Made by a program: the position numbers and the translations under genes | The notes under the pieces: model-generated | What the model was told of the DNA's origin: nothing | Database searches by the model: none | What the model saw: the letters and a program-made list of their open reading frames with translations, nothing else | In this document: one piece after another, positions 1,239 to 11,529 of the stretch | How the letters are laid out: every line of letters starts with the position of its first letter | How positions within the stretch are numbered: position 1 is the first letter of the stretch | NCBI GenBank assembly: GCA_019748295.1 | Contig: JAIEPT010000297.1 | Location: 1-11,714, forward strand | DNA: 11,714 nt | Reading direction: 5' to 3' | Source: Gemmataceae bacterium | GTDB lineage: Bacteria > Planctomycetota > Planctomycetia > Gemmatales > Gemmataceae

Positions 1239-3731
1239 TTACCGCAGCTTCCACTCCGTGAACAGTCGCTGCTCGCTTTCCTGCTCCTGGCAGAAGATGC
1301 GGACGCGATGCACGTCGTCGAGCGTCGCCCAACTTTGCACGTGCGGACCTTGAAAATCCTGCCGAACGGGCCAACCTAGCGTGGCGGCATCCCGGCTCCA
1401 GGCGGCGAGCAAAGCTTGCATGGCTCGATCGGGAGCGGCCAGTTCCTTGCCTTCAATGCGATGGCGGGCGAGAACGCGAATAGCGCGATCGCCGGCGAAC
1501 CAGGCCATGTACCCGTCGTAGTGCGGGTCGTTGACGGCGACGAAGTAGCCGTCATCGAGCTTGGCGGCCCCTAGCTTTTGCAGGTCGGCGAGCGACATGC
1601 CGACCTGCACCTTCGACGTTCCGCCCGGCAAATACGCGAGAGGCGGCAGCGCGACCCCGGCGGCGTGCTCCAGCGGGCAATCGCGAAGGATGAGTTCCGT
1701 CGATCCGCTTTGCGTGACCACCAGCAGCGTCATGTCGTCGTGCCAGCCGAAACGCGATTCCGGACGGCTCGCCGGCAGCTCCTTCCAGGTCGTGGCATCG
1801 ATCGGCAATGCCTCGGCGGGTCCGAGCTTCGCTTTGATCCCATCGACGATTCTGGCAGCCGGCCCGTCATAGCGCACACGCACTTCGACCGCTCGACCCG
1901 CGTCATCGAAACGGGCAGACCACTGGCGAACCACGGATTCCGCAGGCGACTTAGGCGAACCGACAAACGCGGCGACGACTCCGCCGGGAATGTCGCGAAC
2001 ATGCATCTGCGGCGATCGTGGCAGCAGGGCGGCGAATTCGGCCTTCGTCATGCCCAGGCGGAACCCATCGACCTCTCGTTGGACCCGGCGAACCGGCTTG
2101 CCTTCAGCAAGACGCGTGGCACGGTCTTCCGCATCGCGCTTGGTTGCAGCTTCCTTGCGTAATGCGAGATCCGAGTGCACGCTGGCGGCTTCAAGTACAA
2201 CGGCTTGGCTCTGGGCCGCTGGGAATTGCAAGGCGAGCCTTGTTTTGCCGTCGTTCCAAACCAGATGAATGCTTCGACTGGCCGGAACCATTTCGATGTC
2301 GGCGGGTCCGAAGGTTCGCCATCCCTCGGCGGCGACTTGGCCAAGCGTCGTGCGCTGTTTCGGTCGTTCCGTGAGGATGAACGTCGCCTTTCGCACGAGG
2401 TCATGCGAATCCTCGCGCTCGAGCTTCCCTTCCGCGAGGAGGCGTGCGGCAAACGGATGACGCACCGCGGCAAGCGCCGGCGTGTCCGCAGTCACGGACG
2501 ATTGCCTCTGCTTCCACGCAATGAGCCGTCGGCCATGCTCGAAGCCGCGATCAAGATGCACGATGCCGAAATCGCGCGGCAAGGGCGTCGTTGCCGGGAT
2601 GTCGAAGGTCACGCGCACCAGAGCCCCGACTAGGGCATGAGCCGGCGTGACCACCATCTCCGTCTTGGCGGCGCCGAAGCGATACGTGACACGGCGAAAC
2701 TCCGGCATCGCTTCCGCATGCGTGCCGACGCCGCGCTCTTTCCAACAGGGCGCCAGCTGGTCCGGCGTGTGCCATTGCGAGAGCGTCGGCCCGTAAGCCA
2801 GCACCACTTCGGCCGCTTTACGATCTTTCCCGACAAAAACGAGCGCGGCATCGATCCCTTCGAAAGGCAAATCGAGTGCGAGAAGATCGAGCAAGCGATC
2901 GGGATTCGCGATTTGGACCGCCGTGTTGTCGGTGGATGCGTCAAGCCAATCAGCAAGGGCCAGGTGATTTGGAAGTTCCGGGGTCCACGTCGGCGTTTCC
3001 AAACCGGCGAAGAAGCGATCCACTTGGTCCGCCAGATCGCCCCGACCGCGTTCGCGATACGCCTTGGCCGCATCCTTCAAAACGCCAAGGCCCCGCGTCA
3101 GCAGCGTTTGGCCGAGCGGGCTTTTGCGAACGGCTTCCGGAAGCAGTTCGCGCAACTGTCGATGCATGCCGATGAGTGTCGCCGCCCCTTCTTTTTCGTC
3201 GGACGCCACGCGATACTCCGCGTGCAGCAGATGCAGGCCGACGAGGCGAGTCCACTCCAGCGGGTAGTTGCGGCCCACGCGATATTTCTCAAGCGTTGCC
3301 GTGTCGCCGAATTTTGCCGCTGCTTCGAAATCGCCGTGTCGCGCGAGATGCCAGCTCACGGCCGAATCGCGGTCGGCGTCTTTGAGATCATCGGGAACGC
3401 TGACGCCATGCTTGTCGGACCACGCCGCCTGGCGGAAGACGGGGACGGTCAGCGGAAAGCGAGCATCCGGCAGCAACAGAAACGGGGCGGATCCTTCTTG
3501 CCGGCAGCGCTCAAGCGTCGTGAGTTTCGTTTCGACCGACCCGGCCATGGCAGCGAGTTCTTGGCGAGGCCTCTGCAACAGGGCGCCCAGATCGACGACG
3601 TCTTTGCCTGACAGCAAATCGAAAGGAACCTTCGTGAGCGTCACGGCAACCGCGTCGGGTCCCTTCTCGGGGGGCGAGCCGCATCCCATGAGGGCAACAC
3701 ACAAGGCAAGGGCGACATACGGTCGGCGCAT
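1239..3731 (-). CDS. Hypothetical lipoprotein (~830 aa), no recognisable domain
   Basis: An uninterrupted minus-strand reading frame. The internal ATG at complement(3729-3731) is preceded by AGGAG 9-13 nt upstream (revcomp of 3732-3750 = ggatctcaggagttgcccc). It opens with a lipoprotein-type signal peptide MRRPYVALALCVALMGC (lipobox-like LMGC). The opposite strand across this span is broken into short ORFs. Upstream of this ATG the same frame runs on as an antisense artefact through the ATPase gene. Confidence 0.7.
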   Translation of the reverse strand: MRRPYVALALCVALMGCGSPPEKGPDAVAVTLTKVPFDLLSGKDVVDLGALLQRPRQELAAMAGSVETKLTTLERCRQEGSAPFLLLPDARFPLTVPVFRQAAWSDKHGVSVPDDLKDADRDSAVSWHLARHGDFEAAAKFGDTATLEKYRVGRNYPLEWTRLVGLHLLHAEYRVASDEKEGAATLIGMHRQLRELLPEAVRKSPLGQTLLTRGLGVLKDAAKAYRERGRGDLADQVDRFFAGLETPTWTPELPNHLALADWLDASTDNTAVQIANPDRLLDLLALDLPFEGIDAALVFVGKDRKAAEVVLAYGPTLSQWHTPDQLAPCWKERGVGTHAEAMPEFRRVTYRFGAAKTEMVVTPAHALVGALVRVTFDIPATTPLPRDFGIVHLDRGFEHGRRLIAWKQRQSSVTADTPALAAVRHPFAARLLAEGKLEREDSHDLVRKATFILTERPKQRTTLGQVAAEGWRTFGPADIEMVPASRSIHLVWNDGKTRLALQFPAAQSQAVVLEAASVHSDLALRKEAATKRDAEDRATRLAEGKPVRRVQREVDGFRLGMTKAEFAALLPRSPQMHVRDIPGGVVAAFVGSPKSPAESVVRQWSARFDDAGRAVEVRVRYDGPAARIVDGIKAKLGPAEALPIDATTWKELPASRPESRFGWHDDMTLLVVTQSGSTELILRDCPLEHAAGVALPPLAYLPGGTSKVQVGMSLADLQKLGAAKLDDGYFVAVNDPHYDGYMAWFAGDRAIRVLARHRIEGKELAAPDRAMQALLAAWSRDAATLGWPVRQDFQGPHVQSWATLDDVHRVRIFCQEQESEQRLFTEWKLR

Positions 3732-3956: not shown

Positions 3957-5970
3957 ATGCATCGCGAACTGTCTCACGCTGATTCCGCCTTCGCTCAAGA
4001 ACGCCCCTATGCCCTTTATCTGGGCGCCGCGTTTCTGGCGCTCTTGCTCGGCCTCGATCTGGCTCCGCGCATCGGAGCAATGTTTGGCGTTCCCACGCTG
4101 TCTGGACTTCCGAACGGCATTTGGGGCTTCCGCTTCGCCTTGATCGCCGCGGTGCTCGGCGGAGCCCGCGTCCTTTACGGCTCGCTTAATTCGCTCATGG
4201 AAGGCCGGCTTGGAGCGGACGCCGCTCTCGCCATCGCCTGCATCGCCGCCATCATGATGAACGAGCCGTTGGTGGCGGCCGAGGTCGTGTTCATCGCCAT
4301 GGTGGGCGAATGTCTCGAAGCGTTCACCTTCGATCGAACGCAACGAGCCGTGCGGAAGATCGTCGAGGTCTTTCCCATCCGCTGCTGGCGGCTCGAAGAA
4401 GGGAAGGAAACGCGGGTCTTCACGCGCGATTTGCGCGTCGGCGATCTCATCGTCGTCAAACCTGGCGGCAAAATTCCCATCGATGGCCTCGTGCAATCCG
4501 GCCGATCGGCCGTCGATGCGAGCCCGCTCACCGGCGAAAGCCTGCCGCTCGATAAAGGCCCGGGGGACGAAGTGCTGGCGGGGTCGATCAACCTGCACGG
4601 CGCGCTGACGATCCTCGCCCAGAAAGTCGCGGAACAAACCGTGGCCGGGAAGGTGATCGAACTCACCGCCCGGGCTCTCAAGGACAAAACCTCCGGCGAA
4701 CGCATTGCGGACCGGATGGCGCGGTGGTTCCTGCCGGTGCTGCTCGGCCTGGCGCTGCTGACGTTTTTTGGCGCCCTGATTCATTTCGGCGGCGGCGTCT
4801 TCCGCGGAGCCAACATGCCGCGCCTCGGTTGGGGCCAGGCGGTAAGGTCGAGCATGATCCCGACGCTCGCGGTGCTTGTCGTCGCATGCCCCTGCGCGTT
4901 GATCCTCGCCACTCCCGCCGCCGTCATCGCGGCACTCGGACGCTTGGCGGGAACCGGCGTCCTTATCAAGGGAGGCTCCGCCCTCGAGCGACTTGCCGGA
5001 GTGACGGCATTCGCTTTCGACAAGACCGGCACCATCACCGAAGGAAAGCTCGAACTCGGCGATGTGTTGCCGATGCTCGGCGTGGAGGAGAACGAACTGA
5101 TCCGCGTGGCCGCGTCCGCGGAACGGTCGAGCGAGCATCCGCTCGCCCGGCTCGTGCTTGAAGAAGCGAAACGCCGTGGGTTGCAGGTCGAGGACGCGGT
5201 CGATGATTTCGTAGCGTTGCCCGGAGCCGGGATTTCCGCACGTGTCAACGGCTCGACGATCCTTGTGGGCGGAAGGCGATTGCTCGAAGAGCAGGGGGTT
5301 CGCTTCGACGACGCGGCACAATCGCTGTTGGCCCAGCTCGATGCCGAGGGTCAGACAACGCTCTTCGTCGCCCGTGATGGCCGGATCCTTGGAGCGATGG
5401 GGGCACGCGACCGGGTGCGTCCCGAAACCGCGGGCGTCGTCGCCAAGCTGCGTTCGCTGGGCATTGGGCCCATCGTGCTGCTCACCGGCGATCGCTCGGC
5501 CGCGGCTCAAGCGGCGGCGCGCGATCTCGGATTCGATCACATCCGTTCCGAACTCCTGCCGCAAGACAAGGCGACGCATCTCGACGCTCTGCGGATCGGT
5601 GGCGGCAAGGTCGCGATGGTCGGCGACGGCATCAACGACGCCCCCGCTTTGGCTCGCGCCGATGTCGGACTGGCTCTGGGCGGTTCCGGCGTCGATCTGA
5701 CGGCCGAGGCGGGCGACATCATCCTCATGGGGGATCCGATCCGCACGCTGCCGCTCTTGGTCCAGCTCTCGCGGCAAACCGTTCGCATCATCCGCCAAAA
5801 CATTCTCTGGTTCGCGTTCGGCGTCAACATCGTCGGCATCCTGCTCACCAGCTGGCTTTGGCCGTTCATTGCCCCGGCCGGCTGGTCCGATCAATCGCCG
5901 CTCGCCGCGGTGGTGTATCACCAGTTCGGCTCGTTGCTGGTGCTGCTCAATTCGATGCGGCTCCTCTGGT
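3957..5970 (+). other. P1B-type ATPase module of the fusion ORF (8 predicted TMs, A/P/N domains)
   Basis: Motifs TGES, CPC, DKTGT, HP and GDGINDAP in canonical order. No N-terminal CxxC heavy-metal-associated domain. TM7/TM8 show neither a clean Cu+ (YN...MxxSS) nor Zn2+ (K...DxG) signature (TM8 = HQFGSLLVLLNSMRL). Confidence 0.7.
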
Positions 5971-7205
5971 TCGAGCGCGACGCGCGGCAAGGGACGCCTT
6001 CCGCCTGGAGGCGAATGGACGCTTGGTTGGAAAAGCATGTGGACGTCGATGCGTGGATCCACGGCATCGAACATCACGCGGGCAAGGTCGCGGCGTCGGT
6101 AGGTTTCTTGTTCGCCGGAGGGTGGCTTGCGAGCGGCGTCATCGTCGTCGGCCCCGATGAGCATGCCGTCGTTGCTCGGTTCGGCCGCCCGATTGCGGAC
6201 CTCGAAACGGGCTGGCATGGGCGTTGGCCTTGGCCCATCGACGCCGAGCGCCGCGTGACTCGACGTGTGCGGACTGTGGAAGTCGGTTTCCGCGAGGCGC
6301 AAGAACAGACGAAGGCGGCTGCATCGTGGACGTGGACCAGCGCGCACCGCAAAGAGAATCGCCTCGCCCACGAGTCGACGATGATCACGGGGGACAACAA
6401 CCTCGTCGAAGTACAGGCCATCGTCCGCTTCCAGATCGCTGACCCGCGCACCTACTTGTTCGAAGCGAACGGCGCTGAGGAGATTTTGCGGGCCGACGCG
6501 GAGGCCACGCTTCGCACGTTGATCGCAGGCGAAACATTCGCCGAGCTGCTTACTTCGGGCAGGGCGACATTGCAGACGGAGACGCTGCGGCGTTTGAAGG
6601 AGAAGGCGGCGAGCTATGGACCGAAAGGACTCGGCATCGAAATCGAAGGCGTGTCGCTGATCGATCTGCATCCGCCAGGCGAGGTGGTCGCTTCCTATTA
6701 CAACGTGGCCGTCGCCATGCAAGGTCGTGATCGCCGGGTGAACGAGGCGAAGACCGGAGCCTGGAAGATCCGGGCGGATGCCGAGGCGGATGCCCAAACA
6801 ATCGTTCGCCGGGCGCAGGCGAGCGCGACGGAAAAGGTGCAGACGGCGGCGGGCGAGGCCGTGCGGTTCACGGAACTCAGCAATGCAACGCGCGGACTTT
6901 CCTGGCGGGACGAAGGACGCCTTTGGCTGCAAGGCGCCTGGCAAGCGATGCGCGGCGAATCGTTCGATGCGATTGGGCGCCAGCAGGAAGTGGAAAGGCG
7001 ATCGCTCGTCGAACAACAACGGCTGCTCGCGGAGTTTCGGCTCTTCTGGGTCACGCTTGGCTCGGCGTTGCAACGACGCGACGTCATCTTTATCGACAGC
7101 GACAAGGCAGGCGGGCGACGGCAGTTGTTCCTGACGGACCCCGAACTGCTGCGAGGGCCCAATCCCCTCATGCTCGCGCCGCAGTCCAAAGACGGCAACC
7201 GGTGA
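3957..7205 (+). CDS. Fusion protein: P1B-type heavy-metal-translocating P-type ATPase (N-terminal ~670 aa) fused in-frame to an HflK/HflC-like SPFH (band-7) membrane protein module (C-terminal ~370 aa)
   Basis: Single 1082-aa ORF with no stop. ATPase motifs: actuator TGES (4530-4541), transmembrane CPC in VVACPCALI (4886-4894), phosphorylation site DKTGT (5019-5033), SEHPLA, hinge GDGINDAPAL (5622-5645), and two N-terminal extra TMs typical of P1B pumps. After the last ATPase TM pair there is a linker and one additional TM (VGFLFAGGWLASGVIVV). A region alignable to E. coli HflK follows: DEHAVVARFGRP~ERGVVTRFGK, ETGWHGRWPWPIDAERRVTRRV~EPGLNWKPTFIDEVKPVNV, MITGDNNLVEVQAIVRFQIADPRTYLFEA~LTSDENVVRVEMNVQYRVTNPEKYLYSV, HPPGEVVASYYNVAVAMQGRDRR~RPPEEVKAAFDDAIAARENEQ, and a C-terminal VIFIDSDKAGGRRQLFL~KVLVNDKGGNLMVLPL. 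Confidence 0.85.
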   Translation: MHRELSHADSAFAQERPYALYLGAAFLALLLGLDLAPRIGAMFGVPTLSGLPNGIWGFRFALIAAVLGGARVLYGSLNSLMEGRLGADAALAIACIAAIMMNEPLVAAEVVFIAMVGECLEAFTFDRTQRAVRKIVEVFPIRCWRLEEGKETRVFTRDLRVGDLIVVKPGGKIPIDGLVQSGRSAVDASPLTGESLPLDKGPGDEVLAGSINLHGALTILAQKVAEQTVAGKVIELTARALKDKTSGERIADRMARWFLPVLLGLALLTFFGALIHFGGGVFRGANMPRLGWGQAVRSSMIPTLAVLVVACPCALILATPAAVIAALGRLAGTGVLIKGGSALERLAGVTAFAFDKTGTITEGKLELGDVLPMLGVEENELIRVAASAERSSEHPLARLVLEEAKRRGLQVEDAVDDFVALPGAGISARVNGSTILVGGRRLLEEQGVRFDDAAQSLLAQLDAEGQTTLFVARDGRILGAMGARDRVRPETAGVVAKLRSLGIGPIVLLTGDRSAAAQAAARDLGFDHIRSELLPQDKATHLDALRIGGGKVAMVGDGINDAPALARADVGLALGGSGVDLTAEAGDIILMGDPIRTLPLLVQLSRQTVRIIRQNILWFAFGVNIVGILLTSWLWPFIAPAGWSDQSPLAAVVYHQFGSLLVLLNSMRLLWFERDARQGTPSAWRRMDAWLEKHVDVDAWIHGIEHHAGKVAASVGFLFAGGWLASGVIVVGPDEHAVVARFGRPIADLETGWHGRWPWPIDAERRVTRRVRTVEVGFREAQEQTKAAASWTWTSAHRKENRLAHESTMITGDNNLVEVQAIVRFQIADPRTYLFEANGAEEILRADAEATLRTLIAGETFAELLTSGRATLQTETLRRLKEKAASYGPKGLGIEIEGVSLIDLHPPGEVVASYYNVAVAMQGRDRRVNEAKTGAWKIRADAEADAQTIVRRAQASATEKVQTAAGEAVRFTELSNATRGLSWRDEGRLWLQGAWQAMRGESFDAIGRQQEVERRSLVEQQRLLAEFRLFWVTLGSALQRRDVIFIDSDKAGGRRQLFLTDPELLRGPNPLMLAPQSKDGNR
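6090..7202 (+). other. HflK/HflC-like module of the fusion ORF: single TM + SPFH/band-7 domain + coiled-coil + HflK-type C-terminal tail
   Basis: TM at ~6090-6150 and SPFH core at ~6150-6880, ending in the A/E/R/Q-rich coiled-coil segment RADAEADAQTIVRRAQASATEKVQTAAGEAVRF. The C-terminal tail has the HflK-like DxDKxGxxxxLxL block. Boundaries are approximate. Confidence 0.65.
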
Positions 7206-7258: not shown

Positions 7259-7374
7259 GGTGGCACGCCCTGAGTGCAGCGAAGGGCGTGGAAAACCCGC
7301 TGAAAGTTCATTGCAAGTCGGATGCTGCCCCAGCACCGCTTCCACGCCCTTCGCCACACTCAGGGCGTGCCACC
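7259..7374. repeat. 35-bp near-perfect inverted repeat (2 mismatches) with 46-nt spacer in the intergenic region downstream of the ATPase-SPFH gene
   Basis: Left arm 7259-7293 ggtggcacgccctgagtgcagcgaagggcgtggaa. Right arm 7340-7374 ttccacgcccttcgccacactcagggcgtgccacc. Its reverse complement differs from the left arm at only 2 positions. A partial direct copy, caggtggcacgtgcag, lies at 7239-7254, just upstream of the left arm. Confidence 0.6.
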
Positions 7375-7592: not shown

Positions 7593-10079
7593 ATGCGTGT
7601 CGTCGGACTACTCTCCTGCGCCCTCGCTCTCGTTGCGCCAGCTATCTTAATCGCGGCCGAGCCGGTTCGCGGCAAGTTGATCGTCCATCCCGAGAAGATC
7701 GAACTCGTCGGAGCGACGAGCCGTCATGCGTTTCTCGTCACGCAAGTTCAGCCCGACGGTTCGCGTCGCGACGTGACCGCCAAAGCGAAGGTCGTCACCA
7801 GCAACCCGGCCATCGTTCGCCTGGAGAAAGGCGAAGCGATCGCGGCGGCCGATGGAACGTGCGATCTTCAAGTCGAACTCGACGGCCTCGCGGCTCAGCT
7901 CCCAGTAACCGTCCGCGATTCCGGCAAAGCGACTCCCCCTTCGTTTCGCAACGACATCGAACCGCTGCTGACGCGCTTTGGCTGCAACATGGGGCAATGC
8001 CATGGCAAAGGCGCGGGCCAGAACGGCTTTCGCCTTTCGCTCCGCGGCTATGCGGCCGAGTGGGATTACTTTTGGATCACGCGTGAATTCGACAGCCGGC
8101 GGGTCAACTCCAGCGAACCCGATGCAAGCCTGCTGCTCCGCAAACCGCTTGGCTTGGCTCCCCACGAAGGGGGCAAGCTTTGGCAATCCGGCGGTCGCGA
8201 GCACCAGCTCGTGCTCGATTGGATCAAGGCGGGCGTCCCGGGCATCTCGAAGGAAGACCTCGCACTCAAGAACATCGAGATTTTGCCGGGCAATCGCATT
8301 CTTAGGGTCGGCGAAGAGCAGCAATTGCTCGTGCAGGCCGAGTTCGCGGACGGCCTCAAACGGGACGTGACTTGGCTCACGCAGTTCGTTTCCAACGACG
8401 GCCTCGCCGAAGTGTCGCCGACCGGACTCGTGAAGATCGTCCGCCCCGGCGAAACCGCCATCCGGGCCACGTTCCTGGGCCAGGTGTCCGTCATCACGGT
8501 CGCCTCGCCTTACGATCAGAAGTTCGATCCCGCGACGCTCGCCAAGAAAAACAACTTCATCGATGAGCATGTTTTCGCGAAGCTCGCGGAACTCAAGGTT
8601 GAAGCGTCCGAACTGTGCAGCGACGAAACCTTTATCCGCCGAGTGTTTCTCGACGCCATCGGCCTGCCGCCGACTGCGGTAGAAATTCGCACGTTCCTCG
8701 CGGATCGTGATGCGACCAAGCGGGCAAAGCTGATCGACCGCTTGCTCGAACGGCCCGAGTTCGTCGATTTCTGGACGTTGCAACTCAGCGATCTTCTGCA
8801 GAATCGCAAGGAAGCGGACCACGACGTGCGCGGCGCCAAGGGCGTCCGCGACATGCACAACTGGATCCGCGGGCAGGTTGCCATCAACCGGCCGTGGGAC
8901 GAGATGGCCCGCGAACTGCTCACCACGACCGGCGACGTCAGCGAGAAGCCGGCCGTCGGCTATTACATCGTGAACGTCGGCGAACATCGCGATTCGCACA
9001 AGTCCACGATCGTCGCCAATGCGGCCCAGACCTTCCTTGGCGCCCGCATCGGCTGTGCCCAGTGCCACAACCATCCATCCGAAAAATACACGCAAGATGA
9101 TTACTACCATTTCGCCGGGTTCTTCTCGCGCATCCGCCTCGATCGCAAGGACCCGAAGCAGGGCGTCACGAAGCTGATGGTTTCGACGGCGGATCAGAAT
9201 CAGAACAAGCAGCCGGTGGGCGTCTCGCAACCGCGGACGAACCAGTTCCTGCCGCCGCGTCCGCTGGACCGGACCGAGACGCCGGTGAAGCCGGGCGAAG
9301 ATCCGCGCGAGAAGTTGGCCCAATGGATCACGAATCCGAACAACGAACACTTCGCGGGCGCGATGGTCAATCGCCTGTGGGCCCACTTCATGGGCGTGGG
9401 CCTCGTGGAACCGATCGACGATCTCCGCGTCAGCAATCCTCCTTCCAACCCTGGTCTTTGGAAGGCGCTGGGCCAGGAGTTCGTCGCCAAGAAGTTCGAT
9501 CGCCGGCACATGATCCGCACGATCCTCAACTCGCGTACCTACCAGCTCAGCTCCGAAACCCGGAGAAGCAACGAGCGCGACCTTCGGTTCTATTCGCACT
9601 ACTATGCTCGCCGACTACCTGCCGAAGTGATGCTTGATGCCATCTCCCAGGCGACGGGCGTCCCGGAAAAGTTCGAGGGCTACCCCGTCGGCCTGCGAGC
9701 CGCACAGGTTCCGGACCCCGCGGTGAAGTCGTACTTCCTAGGACTCTTCGGCCGCAGCGAGCGCATCACCGCCTGTGCCTGCGAACGCAATAATGAGGTA
9801 ACGCTGCCGCAACTGCTCCATGTCAGCGGCGGCACGACGATCGGTCAAAAGATCGCCGATGCGAATGGCCGATTGACCGACTTGCTCAAAGCGAAGAAGA
9901 GCGACACGGAATTGGTCGATGAGTTGTTCCTTACAACGCTATGCCGCCTGCCGCGTTCGCAAGAACGGCAACTGGCGGAAAACGATCTCAAGTCGGCGGA
10001 GCCGACGGAACGCGAACAGGTCTTCCGCGACCTGTTCTGGGTGTTGATGAACACGAAGGAATTCGCGTTCAATCATTAA
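7593..10079 (+). CDS. Secreted Planctomycete-type multidomain protein: signal peptide – Big_2 – PSCyt1-like (CX4CH variant) – Big_2 – PSCyt2/DUF1549 – PSD1/DUF1553
   Basis: 828 aa. N-terminal Sec signal MRVVGLLSCALALVAPAILIAA. Two bacterial Ig-like (Big_2-type) segments (res ~25-110 and ~225-305). A cytochrome-like segment with CNMGQCHG (nt 7983-8003) ends in LVLDWIKAGVP. The DUF1549 core is FIRRVFLDAIGLPPTAVEIRTFLADRD...LIDRLLERPEF. The DUF1553 region holds CAQCHNHP (nt 9054-9077). GAGG lies 7 nt upstream of the ATG. The partner DUF1501 gene follows immediately, as is typical. Confidence 0.85.
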   Translation: MRVVGLLSCALALVAPAILIAAEPVRGKLIVHPEKIELVGATSRHAFLVTQVQPDGSRRDVTAKAKVVTSNPAIVRLEKGEAIAAADGTCDLQVELDGLAAQLPVTVRDSGKATPPSFRNDIEPLLTRFGCNMGQCHGKGAGQNGFRLSLRGYAAEWDYFWITREFDSRRVNSSEPDASLLLRKPLGLAPHEGGKLWQSGGREHQLVLDWIKAGVPGISKEDLALKNIEILPGNRILRVGEEQQLLVQAEFADGLKRDVTWLTQFVSNDGLAEVSPTGLVKIVRPGETAIRATFLGQVSVITVASPYDQKFDPATLAKKNNFIDEHVFAKLAELKVEASELCSDETFIRRVFLDAIGLPPTAVEIRTFLADRDATKRAKLIDRLLERPEFVDFWTLQLSDLLQNRKEADHDVRGAKGVRDMHNWIRGQVAINRPWDEMARELLTTTGDVSEKPAVGYYIVNVGEHRDSHKSTIVANAAQTFLGARIGCAQCHNHPSEKYTQDDYYHFAGFFSRIRLDRKDPKQGVTKLMVSTADQNQNKQPVGVSQPRTNQFLPPRPLDRTETPVKPGEDPREKLAQWITNPNNEHFAGAMVNRLWAHFMGVGLVEPIDDLRVSNPPSNPGLWKALGQEFVAKKFDRRHMIRTILNSRTYQLSSETRRSNERDLRFYSHYYARRLPAEVMLDAISQATGVPEKFEGYPVGLRAAQVPDPAVKSYFLGLFGRSERITACACERNNEVTLPQLLHVSGGTTIGQKIADANGRLTDLLKAKKSDTELVDELFLTTLCRLPRSQERQLAENDLKSAEPTEREQVFRDLFWVLMNTKEFAFNH

Positions 10080-10094
10080 CGCGATATCCCCAAG

Positions 10095-10187
10095 CCCCAG
10101 GGTAAGCGCTAGCGCACCCTGGGGTTCCCGACGGTGAACGAAGTGATCGGGAAAGATCCCCAGGGTGCGCTAGCGCTTACCCTGGGG
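10095..10187. repeat. Perfect 30-bp inverted repeat pair (33-bp spacer), each arm itself an internal palindrome, between the DUF1553 and DUF1501 genes
   Basis: 10095-10124 ccccagggtaagcgctagcgcaccctgggg and 10158-10187 ccccagggtgcgctagcgcttaccctgggg are exact reverse complements. Each contains the half-sites ccccagggt/accctgggg flanking the self-complementary core gcgctagcgc. Both are preceded by atcccc(a). Confidence 0.8.
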
Positions 10188-10221
10188 CTTGACGCGAACG
10201 ACTGAAATCAAGGATCCGACC

Positions 10222-11529
10222 ATGCTCGATATTTTCAGCGACCGCTCGAATCGCCGCGATTTTCTTCGCGTCGGCGCCCTCACCGGCCTGGGCCTGAGTT
10301 TGCCGCGGCTGCTCGAAGCGCAGTCGGCGGGCGCCGCCGAGAATCGCCGGGGGGCACGGGCGAAGTCGGTCGTCCTCGTCTACCTTGGCGGCGGCCTGTC
10401 GCATCATGACAGCTTTGATCTGAAGCCGGATGCGCCTTCGGAGATCGCGGGCATCTACAAGCCGATGCGCACGAACGTTGCGGGCACGAACATCGGCGAA
10501 CTGCTGCCGCGGTTCGGCACGATCATGGACAAGGTCGCCCTCGTTCGCTCCGGCGCCCACAACAACGATCACCACGAAACCGCCACCAACTGGGTGCTCT
10601 CCGGCCGATTCGGCTCCCCCTTCGGCGACTTCCCCGCGATCGGCGCCGTCGTCGCCCATCAACTCGGCTTCCGCGGCGTGCTGCCGCCATACGTGTCGGT
10701 GCCCCGCAATCCGTCGTTCACCTGGGAACTCGGCAAAAGCGCCTGGCTCGGCGGACGCTTCGAATCGTTCAAAACCGGCGATCCGAATCAGCCCGGCTTC
10801 AAAGTGCAGGATGTCGCCCCGACGGAAAACCTGACTCCCCGCTCGGCGCAGCGCCGCCAGAGTTTGCTTCAGGCAATGGACGGCCTTGCTCGCAACATTC
10901 AGGGGAACGACCAGATCCAGACCTACGGCGAATTTCAACAGAGGGCCGCCAGCCTGCTGCTTTCGCCCGAAGCTCGTTCCGCGTTCGACATCGACCTCGA
11001 AAGTCCAACACTCCGCGATCGCTATGGCCGCAACACCTTTGGTCAAAGCTGCCTCCTGGCCCGCCGACTCGTGGAACGGGGCGTGCGATTCGTCACCGTC
11101 AACTACGGCGGCTGGGATCACCACGGCAATATCTTCCCAGGCCTCAACCGCAAGCTGCCGGAATTGGACACCGGCTTCGCGACGATGATCGAAGACATGG
11201 AGACGCGCGGCCTGCTTTCCGATACGCTCGTGGTGATGATGGGCGAGTTCGGCCGCACGCCGCGGATCAACAAGGACACCGGCCGCGACCACTGGGGCCC
11301 GGCCGCATCGCTGATTTTCGCCGGCGCCGGCGTCCGCGGGGGCCTGGTGCTCGGCGCCACCGATCGCCAGGGCGCCTACGTGACGCGCCGCCCCGTCTCG
11401 CCCGCGGATGTGGCTTACACGATCTATGAAGCCGTCGGCGTCGACCCCCACCGCTGGCTCACCCACCCCGAAGGCCGGCCGATCGAAATTCTGGACCAGG
11501 GCGAAATGGTGCGCGAGCTGTACGCGTAA
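10222..11529 (+). CDS. DUF1501 family protein (alkaline phosphatase/sulfatase-like superfamily), Tat-exported
   Basis: Preferred start is the ATG at 10222, with AAGGA 8 nt upstream. The TTG at 10189 in the ORF track overlaps the inverted repeat. Twin-arginine signal SNRRDFLRVGALTGLGLSLPRLLEA. Characteristic DUF1501 blocks: VVLVYLGGGLSHHDSFDLKPDAP, NNDHHETATNWVLSG, VNYGGWDHHGNIF, MMGEFGRTPRIN..GRDHWG. Its position directly downstream of a DUF1549/DUF1553 gene is the canonical Planctomycete pairing. Confidence 0.85.
   Translation: MLDIFSDRSNRRDFLRVGALTGLGLSLPRLLEAQSAGAAENRRGARAKSVVLVYLGGGLSHHDSFDLKPDAPSEIAGIYKPMRTNVAGTNIGELLPRFGTIMDKVALVRSGAHNNDHHETATNWVLSGRFGSPFGDFPAIGAVVAHQLGFRGVLPPYVSVPRNPSFTWELGKSAWLGGRFESFKTGDPNQPGFKVQDVAPTENLTPRSAQRRQSLLQAMDGLARNIQGNDQIQTYGEFQQRAASLLLSPEARSAFDIDLESPTLRDRYGRNTFGQSCLLARRLVERGVRFVTVNYGGWDHHGNIFPGLNRKLPELDTGFATMIEDMETRGLLSDTLVVMMGEFGRTPRINKDTGRDHWGPAASLIFAGAGVRGGLVLGATDRQGAYVTRRPVSPADVAYTIYEAVGVDPHRWLTHPEGRPIEILDQGEMVRELYA

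Follow-up and report, generated by a model that had tools for sequence, protein, structure and literature searches.

A probable REPIN-type hairpin doublet between the PSD1 and DUF1501 genes of a Gemmataceae bacterium

Introduction

Nearly all that is understood of the biology of repetitive extragenic palindromes (REPs), and of the inverted REP doublets known as REPINs, comes from Proteobacteria, with their GTAG-footed units and their REP-associated tyrosine transposases (RAYT enzymes). REP dimers are also known from other phyla and are mobilised by RAYT (TnpA-REP) HuH/Y1 enzymes, whose gene is as a rule present once and bordered by the same REPs. Here we describe a palindromic element of 101 nucleotides (nt) in a planctomycete. 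It occupies positions 10091-10191 of an 11,714-nt stretch of DNA from a Gemmataceae bacterium (GenBank assembly GCA_019748295.1, contig JAIEPT010000297.1, hereafter the window), and lies between a PSCyt2/PSD1 (DUF1549/DUF1553) gene and a DUF1501 gene. We conclude that it is probably a single representative of a palindromic element of the REP-dimer or REPIN type, dispersed and non-autonomous, and not a switch built for this gene pair.

Head-to-head (HH) REP dimers have spacers of 20-100 bp whose ends are complementary, fold separately or as one large stem-loop, and show compensatory changes in their hairpins (PMC3733652). The inverted-hairpin anatomy that we describe below matches the definition of a REPIN (PMC3116915). 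The ends of insertion sequences (IS) of the IS200/IS605 family, like REPs, are recognised on single-stranded DNA by HuH/Y1 enzymes (PMC6006769). Once transcribed, REP-type hairpins are known to make mRNA more stable, to end transcription and to influence translation (summarised in PMC6006769), and the hairpins of Correia elements can be cleaved or protected by RNase III (PMC2649163). Finally, genes for class 3 TnpA-Y1 are rare, occur mainly in Planctomycetes and Acidobacteria, and have hairpins on their flanks whose foot is CnGA instead of GTAG (Quentin et al. 2018, PMC6006769), with about 600 copies of this class-3 type reported for S. usitatus (PMC6006769).

Structure of the 10091-10191 element

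A preliminary description of the window, made from its letters alone, pointed out two 30-nt arms that are exact reverse complements, separated by 33 nt, each of them palindromic in itself, so that four identical 9-bp half-sites result. All of this holds, and the repeat is in fact larger than was claimed. The left arm is CCCCAGGGTAAGCGCTAGCGCACCCTGGGG and the right arm is CCCCAGGGTGCGCTAGCGCTTACCCTGGGG; the exact match covers 34 nt on either side (10091-10124 against 10158-10191) once the CAAG and CTTG feet are included, and, if one mismatch is allowed, a repeat finder carries the arms on to 37 nt (10091-10127 and 10155-10191). Within each arm, a 9-bp stem (CCCCAGGGT/ACCCTGGGG) encloses AA followed by GCGCTAGCGC. 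The unit of the proposed REP-dimer or REPIN-type element is 34 nt long, consisting of an NAAG foot, a 9-bp stem and a 12-nt loop, and two such units are arranged in inverted orientation about a 33-nt spacer (Table 1).

The whole element forms one long hairpin, whose stem is about 45 bp. Its folding energy is -91.8 kcal/mol for RNA (z -15.3) and -56.4 kcal/mol for DNA (z -15.7), and in neither case did any shuffled sequence equal it. Taken alone, the 37-nt arms, each including its foot, reach -25.3 kcal/mol (left) and -22.6 kcal/mol (right) as RNA, and -13.0 and -12.6 kcal/mol as DNA. The stem pattern was not matched in any of 200 shuffles of the window, and a chance origin of the inverted repeat is excluded.

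In this anatomy the element resembles REPs, bacterial interspersed mosaic elements (BIMEs) and REPINs. The unit is an imperfect palindrome of 30-40 nt whose stem has a 4-nt foot at its base, and two units form an inverted HH homodimer with outward feet. The spacer falls within 20-100 bp, has a conserved length and complementary ends, and allows either two hairpins or one long fold. As set out below, the hairpins are also extragenic and dispersed, occur as singletons and tail-to-tail (TT) dimers as well, show compensatory changes, and come in several families per genome.

Copies at unrelated junctions

To find further copies, we scanned one genome per species with the stem only (CCCCAGGGT-N12-ACCCTGGGG), leaving the loop free. 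The scan gave 46 loci, 16 of them in Planctomycetota, where several metagenome-assembled genomes (MAGs) were matched two to four times. About 30 of the 46 (in Streptomyces, Pseudomonas, Hymenobacter and others) we discarded as noise, as they are ordinary longer palindromes of unrelated phyla in which the ‘loop’ merely continues the stem. The focal loop, AAGCGCTAGCGC, was found elsewhere only in the Gemmataceae MAG STL-PLA17 (JAXMAT01), at two loci. One of these (L043, 3290-3390) is a full-length copy between nuoL and nuoM, 84% identical to the focal element over 102 nt, with the same CCAAG...CTTG ends and a fold of -83.7 kcal/mol. Its spacer is also 33 nt long but only about 58% identical, and has complementary ends of its own (ATAC/GTAT), by which the continuity of the hairpin is preserved. 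In the other copy (L027, 3242 to about 3305), located between transporter-like and peptidase-like genes, the left arm is intact and the right arm has decayed. CCAAG is common to all three copies, which also have the same orientation relative to their co-directional flanking genes (n=3). No flanking direct repeats stand beside the feet of any of the three (window, L043 and L027), which is a further likeness to REPs and REPINs.

The element is thus part of a dispersed family. Since it is absent from the orthologous junction of a close relative (see below) and has sibling copies in unrelated junctions of STL-PLA17, it is not specific to its locus. The preliminary description had listed a dispersed element resembling REPs or miniature inverted-repeat transposable elements (MITEs) among its candidates, and this suggestion is borne out by the recurrence of the feet and the 33-nt spacer at two unrelated STL-PLA17 junctions, by the absence from the relative, and by a wider superfamily of such hairpins in Planctomycetota.

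In a relative of STL-PLA17 at 87% identity, the nuoL/nuoM junction contains another, nested hairpin pair, and only the last approximately 40 nt before the ATG are homologous; in a 72% relative the junction is too diverged to align. The pair in the 87% relative (L139, 374-573) consists of a CCTCACGC..GCGTGAGG doublet nested within a CCCTCTCCCC..GGGGAGAGGGG doublet. It seems that, within a given junction, older hairpin elements can be invaded or displaced by newer ones.

We also examined where the copies lie relative to genes, using a crude gene call based on GC content at third codon positions (GC3). In 12 of the 13 gaps between co-directional genes, the upstream stop codon is closer to the copy (anything from 3 nt of overlap to a distance of 22 nt) than the downstream start codon is (19-501 nt), for which we calculate a binomial p of about 0.002 (at least 12 of 13). 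The remaining placements are two copies between convergent genes and two between divergent genes. The copies prefer the region just after stop codons, where they mostly begin at a distance of 5-25 nt.

Orthologous and homologous junctions

The closest relative that we found (contig L052) encodes a DUF1501 protein with 95% amino acid identity, and its coding flanks are 82-86% identical at the nucleotide level. When the window is aligned to this contig with blastn, the alignment ends at 10079, with the PSD1 stop codon, and restarts at 10211, 11 nt before the ATG. The gap in L052 is 173 nt long and contains an unrelated inverted repeat, with 37-nt arms of CACAGAG-type sequence and a 75-nt spacer. 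As this alignment shows, the element entered the PSD1-DUF1501 spacer, or replaced its content, after the split from the nearest sampled relative. A recent arrival also fits the perfection of the element, which is the most perfect doublet on its contig (97-100%, vs 81-94% for the other families). The preliminary description took this perfection as a sign that the element is unlikely to be neutral, but its youth explains the perfection better.

We further collected 60 PSD1-DUF1501 junctions from metagenome relatives at 42-69% protein identity. Most of these are 7-60 nt long and have no significant structure. In about 10 of the 60, longer gaps hold very strong hairpins (z <= -5), which belong to mutually unrelated sequence families. 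A conserved intercistronic hairpin is thus absent from this gene pair, and hairpins arrive sporadically. DUF1501 homologues of about 80% identity (P0003, P0004, P0005 and P0007) were of no use for this comparison, because they are non-syntenic paralogues with no PSD1 gene upstream.

Two of the homologous junctions (L052, 9837-9985, and L074, 4643-4796) have long inverted repeats with short CACAGAG- or CGCAGAG-type motifs and arms of 37 to approximately 45 nt. Repeats of this type are another recurrent repeat family of Planctomycetota.

Table 1. Coordinates of features at the PSD1-DUF1501 junction and of other hairpin doublet families on the source contig. Positions are those of the window unless a contig is named.
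Feature	Position	Strand	Remarks
PSCyt2/PSD1 stop codon TAA	10077..10079	+	11 nt from hairpin foot
Stretch without counterpart in L052	10080..10210	+	lineage-specific insertion or replacement; holds the 101-nt element
Left foot CAAG (NAAG tag)	10091..10094	+	abuts left stem on its 5′ side; AAG near-invariant in 30 tag-oriented arms
Left REP-like arm	10095..10124	+	stem CCCCAGGGT 10095-10103, loop AAGCGCTAGCGC 10104-10115, stem ACCCTGGGG 10116-10124
Spacer, 33 nt	10125..10157	+	ends TTCCCGA (10125-10131) and TCGGGAA (10147-10153) are complementary and extend the long hairpin
Right REP-like arm	10158..10187	-	exact reverse complement of left-arm unit
Right foot CTTG (CAAG on minus strand)	10188..10191	-	outward feet, i.e. 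HH dimer
AAGGA Shine-Dalgarno-like motif (10210-10214) and DUF1501 ATG (10222)	10210..10224	+	outside hairpin; conserved in relative
Doublet family CACGCCCT..AGGGCGTG	7259-7374; L002 ~6409-6512		
Doublet family ACAAGTT..AACTTGT	L002 4940-5009, 5460-5551		in and just after ATP synthase operon
Doublet family CCCTCTCCC..GGGAGAGGG	three sites on source contig		

A wider group of hairpins with the same stem and foot

Most of the Planctomycetota matches in the stem-only scan belong to a sister family, which shares the 9-bp stem and the foot of the focal family and differs in its 12-nt loop, GAGGTACTCCGA. This family occupies at least five sites in one MAG. It occurs as spaced HH dimers (L007 and L042) and as compact palindromes of three half-sites (L018, L019, L025, L037, L046 and L047). 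On a contig binned as Terriglobia (L012), a TT dimer and a singleton are present (4002-4031 and 6758-6846), and a contig binned as Acidobacteriaceae (L013) has a singleton at 149-178; these two contigs reflect either spread across phyla or mis-binning.

We aligned 30 arms oriented by their feet. AAG is nearly invariant directly 5′ of the stem, while the base preceding it is variable, so that the foot reads NAAG. In the stems, 97.7% of cells form standard pairs, and three of the nine stem pairs have changes on both sides (17 cells), namely interchanges among CA, TG and CG and between CCCAGAGGT and ACCTCTGGG. None of 500 shuffles reached the observed covariation, and controls with slid positions collapse. 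The unit hairpins are thus structurally constrained and, because the AAG foot is near-invariant and the stem changes are compensatory, the basic unit is a foot plus a hairpin, as in REPs.

Stems and loops look modular across families, as far as the sequences indicate. One arm (L050, 6129-6157; CCCCAGGAT-GAGCGCAGCGA-TTCCTGGGG) joins a stem of the focal type to the loop that belongs to the other family in the window (GAGTGCAGCGA, window 7267-7293). One inserted T is all that separates the focal loop AAGCGCTAGCGC from AGCGCAGCG.

One could go further, and suppose that hairpins with an NAAG foot and a CCCYRGGGT stem, with swappable loops (AAGCGCTAGCGC, GAGGTACTCCGA and GAGCGCAGCGA), form an undescribed REP superfamily of Planctomycetota and Acidobacteriota that is mobilised by class 3 TnpA-Y1 or another enzyme, targets the first approximately 25 nt after stop codons or pre-existing hairpins, and systematically remodels operon junctions. 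We offer this broader proposal as a speculative conjecture, which in its full form is doubtful. With regard to class 3 TnpA-Y1, the hairpins flanking these genes occur in the same two phyla as the superfamily with the CCCCAGGGT stem, likewise have a tetranucleotide foot that is not GTAG, and can be multi-copy. On the other hand, their foot is CnGA and their structures are described as weaker, whereas our hairpins have an NAAG foot and fold very strongly. In the sister family, the last bases of the loop, immediately 5′ of the second half of the stem, do read CCGA, which may be coincidence. No open reading frame (ORF) with the class 3 motif was present near copies in the fetched loci. The stem pattern had no match in genomes titled Solibacter in the scanned collection, whose inclusion of S. 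usitatus was unchecked, and the supplementary tables of PMC6006769 contained neither CCCCAGGG nor CCCTGGGG, nor the taxon or class names that we tried. The connection of the NAAG hairpins to class 3 TnpA-Y1 is thus a lead only.

Weighing the assignment and its alternatives

Several observations weigh against placing the element among REP dimers and REPINs. The foot is NAAG (CAAG here), and not the GT[AG]G or CGTC of REPs. Copy number is low: we saw one copy in the 21.7 kb of the source contig and two loci in STL-PLA17, i.e. 1-2 loci per genome, compared with the tens to hundreds of classical REPINs, and the focal loop family comprises three loci in two genomes, where the source genome is represented by those 21.7 kb. 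There were no exact matches to the 20-nt loop core GGGTAAGCGCTAGCGCACCC in JGI metagenomes, no blastn match to the 113-nt stretch 10085-10197, which contains the element, in plasmid or phage collections, and, in a stem-pattern scan of viral contigs, nothing related and one unrelated simple hairpin. Within the approximately 0.9 Mb of fetched loci, we detected neither an ORF with an HuH...Y motif (using the class-specific patterns from PMC6006769) nor a tblastn match to a RAYT probe, both of them weak negatives. The insertion boundaries and the lack of a target duplication rest on three flanks, since no clean empty site was recovered. The CA/TG covariation amounts to local inversion of a half-site, and could partly reflect exchange between arms at the DNA level. 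Lastly, all RNA-level effects proposed below are inferred.

Apart from the foot and the copy number, the element differs from known REPs and REPINs in having no linked RAYT in the fetched loci, in its Gemmataceae host, and in a stem that is common to families with different loops. The element acts like a REP dimer or REPIN but is not a canonical member of these groups.

The most serious alternative is that the hairpin is a selected intercistronic RNA structure which adjusts the amounts of the two partner proteins to each other, whether as a processing site, as a stabiliser or as an attenuator; any strong hairpin would then suffice, and different lineages would have recruited different ones. 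It is true that L052 also has a strong, unrelated hairpin at this junction, as do about 10 of the 60 homologous junctions, that our hairpin begins 11 nt past the stop codon without covering the ribosome-binding site, and that REP-type hairpins alter mRNA stability, termination and translation (PMC6006769), with a precedent for RNase III in Correia elements (PMC2649163). However, the roughly 50 other homologous junctions are short and unstructured, so the gene pair needs no hairpin, the focal element is also found at unrelated junctions such as nuoL/nuoM, and strong hairpins are equally frequent in the other gaps of the contig, so that no special selection needs to be invoked. The marks of a locus-specific cis-regulatory RNA are also missing: the orthologous gap is unrelated, most homologous junctions are unstructured, and Rfam gave no match at gathering thresholds. 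(At lax thresholds, Rfam models of miRNA-precursor hairpins matched both strands far below their cut-offs, which we regard as structural coincidence.) We therefore find this explanation unlikely. The suggestion in the preliminary description that the hairpin sets the stoichiometry of the two partners finds no support in the sense of a structure evolved for this purpose, given the unstructured 7-60-nt spacing of most of the 60 junctions and the unrelated sequences of those with hairpins; an incidental effect at the RNA level is plausible.

A classical MITE with terminal inverted repeats (TIRs), i.e. a deletion derivative of an IS with a DDE transposase that moves by cut-and-paste, would share with our element the long inverted termini, the length of about 100 bp, the non-coding sequence and the dispersed copies. 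Such an origin is nonetheless improbable. The three copies all lack a flanking direct repeat, each ‘TIR’ forms a conserved hairpin of its own, in which changes compensate one another, singletons and TT pairs are expected of REP units but not of TIRs, and the fetched loci showed no related IS.

The preliminary description also considered a tandem operator for a dimeric DNA-binding protein. On such a reading, the two GCGCTAGCGC cores and four CCCCAGGGT half-sites would be bound as duplex by a protein that regulates the DUF1501 gene as a dimer or tetramer. The dyad symmetry is perfect, and the palindromic 10-bp core does recur 53-54 bp apart from start to start, which is about five helical turns. 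Yet a promoter consensus scan found no promoter-like site near the element, all three copies follow closely on stop codons, at co-directional junctions whose genes have unrelated functions, the stem is retained in the sister family while the core is swapped, the stem covariation points to pairing rather than to base-specific readout of a duplex, and the orthologous junction lacks the element. Taken together, these points make an operator very improbable. Finally, an incidental palindrome or an artefact, which one might suspect in a metagenome assembly because assemblers can create or collapse hairpin repeats, is scarcely credible given a chance expectation of zero, a fold z of about -15 and the independent assembly of the same 102-nt architecture in a MAG from another project (L043).

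Proposed mechanism

If the element is a REP dimer or REPIN, it would be expected, by analogy with REPs, REPINs and IS200/IS605, to spread as single-stranded hairpin DNA that is handled in trans by an HuH/Y1 (RAYT-like) enzyme, and to do so without target-site duplication. We propose mobilisation of this kind because the foot-plus-hairpin logic of the element is that of IS200/IS605 ends and of REPs.

When co-transcribed with its neighbours, the element would form its -91.8 kcal/mol stem-loop, with 11 nt between the PSD1 stop codon and the base of the structure, and with the ribosome-binding site left free. This stem-loop would most likely break the tight coupling of the two cistrons seen in relatives, and might serve as a barrier to 3′ exonucleases, a site for RNase III (a double-strand RNase) or a partial block to transcription, in which case the upstream cistron would be favoured over the downstream one. 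Effects of this sort are most likely a by-product of insertion and not a conserved regulatory design. Liang, Rudd and Deutscher (Mol Cell 2015) reportedly found that REPs within 15 nt of a stop codon stall terminating ribosomes; the 11-nt distance from stop codon to foot falls in this range.

For such consequences at the RNA level, the Correia elements of Neisseria (CREE, Correia repeat enclosed elements, or NEMIS, Neisseria miniature insertion sequences) are likely the best model. They, too, are intergenic elements of approximately 100-150 bp with inverted ends, which, on co-transcription, form a long RNA hairpin that RNase III can bind and cleave, or protect, so that the expression of neighbouring genes is altered (PMC2649163). 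We did not see their TA target duplication, their sites for integration host factor (IHF) or their promoter-forming ends in our element, and the inverted repeats of Correia elements are not conserved hairpins.

A GC-rich stem-loop a few nucleotides after a stop codon also brings to mind a Rho-independent terminator. However, a terminator scan of 9800-10400 found none, and the sequence following the hairpin (ACGCGAACGAC) has no run of T (U in RNA). Moreover, the stem is about 45 bp long rather than 5-15 bp, and the two genes are apparently co-transcribed in relatives.

Genes at the junction

A 34.6-kb metagenome contig (ENA ERZ1079237, k127_4759), of which 21.7 kb were fetched, contains the window as its 3′ part, and a protein database gives the source organism as a Gemmataceae MAG. 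The PSCyt2/PSD1 gene extends from 7593 to 10079 and the DUF1501 gene starts at ATG 10222, leaving a gap of 142 nt. Gap and start are as first described, and the database gene call agrees with this ATG. The element ends 30 nt before it, so that AGGA (10211-10214) stays outside the hairpin. A TTG at 10189, which had been noted as an alternative start, is indeed at this position, but we rejected it as a start codon of DUF1501: it is contained within the CTTG foot, and homology to the close relative resumes only at 10211.

Significance

The palindrome, striking as it is, should not be read as a dedicated regulator of PSD1 and DUF1501, a pair that is normally 7-60 nt apart with no structure between. 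It is an element of a routine type in an under-studied phylum. A Gemmataceae contig on which at least four strong doublet families take up about half of the intergenic gaps, those within the ATP synthase and nuo operons included, and a superfamily with a different foot (NAAG) and low copy number per loop variant, would extend the REP/RAYT paradigm to Planctomycetota if the cognate enzyme were identified, and would provide a handle on the little-studied class 3 HuH enzymes. On the practical side, such elements break short-read assemblies, seed spurious ORFs and give false calls of ‘structured RNA’ in Planctomycetota MAGs.

Other hairpin doublets on the source contig

Of the 15 intergenic gaps of at least 40 nt on the source contig, 8 have a fold z <= -5, compared with 4-5 of 15 on the contig of the relative. 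Besides the focal family, at least three families of doublets are present on the source contig, whose arms are nested palindromes (Table 1). Upstream of the PSD1 gene, the REPIN-like doublet at 7259-7374 has 35-nt arms that are 94% complementary and a 46-nt spacer. Each of its arms is a nested hairpin (CACGCCCT-11 nt-AGGGCGTG), its RNA fold is -84.2 kcal/mol (z -9.8), and a sibling copy lies approximately 10.7 kb upstream on the same contig. Doublets of the ACAAGTT..AACTTGT and CCCTCTCCC..GGGAGAGGG families are found between genes of the ATP synthase operon (L002, 1824-1984, together with the two sites of the former family listed in Table 1).

Positions 1-37 of the window are part of the right arm of a 286-nt inverted repeat (L002, 9641-9926), with 104-nt arms that are 85% complementary, located between genes for pyruvate kinase and an aromatic amino acid hydroxylase. 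A short Logan contig (L005), which belongs to the same organism but comes from a different sample, begins exactly at base 1 of the window, which suggests that assemblies break at this repeat.

Elsewhere in the window, positions 3957-7205 encode a 1082-amino-acid (aa) P-type (E1-E2) ATPase with a C-terminal SPFH/Band 7 domain, which is an uncommon fusion. On the minus strand, a database-called gene for an 830-aa protein with no Pfam domain occupies 1239-3731, and a hairpin with 19-nt arms (1057-1109) lies between the 3′ end of this gene and the convergent hydroxylase gene.

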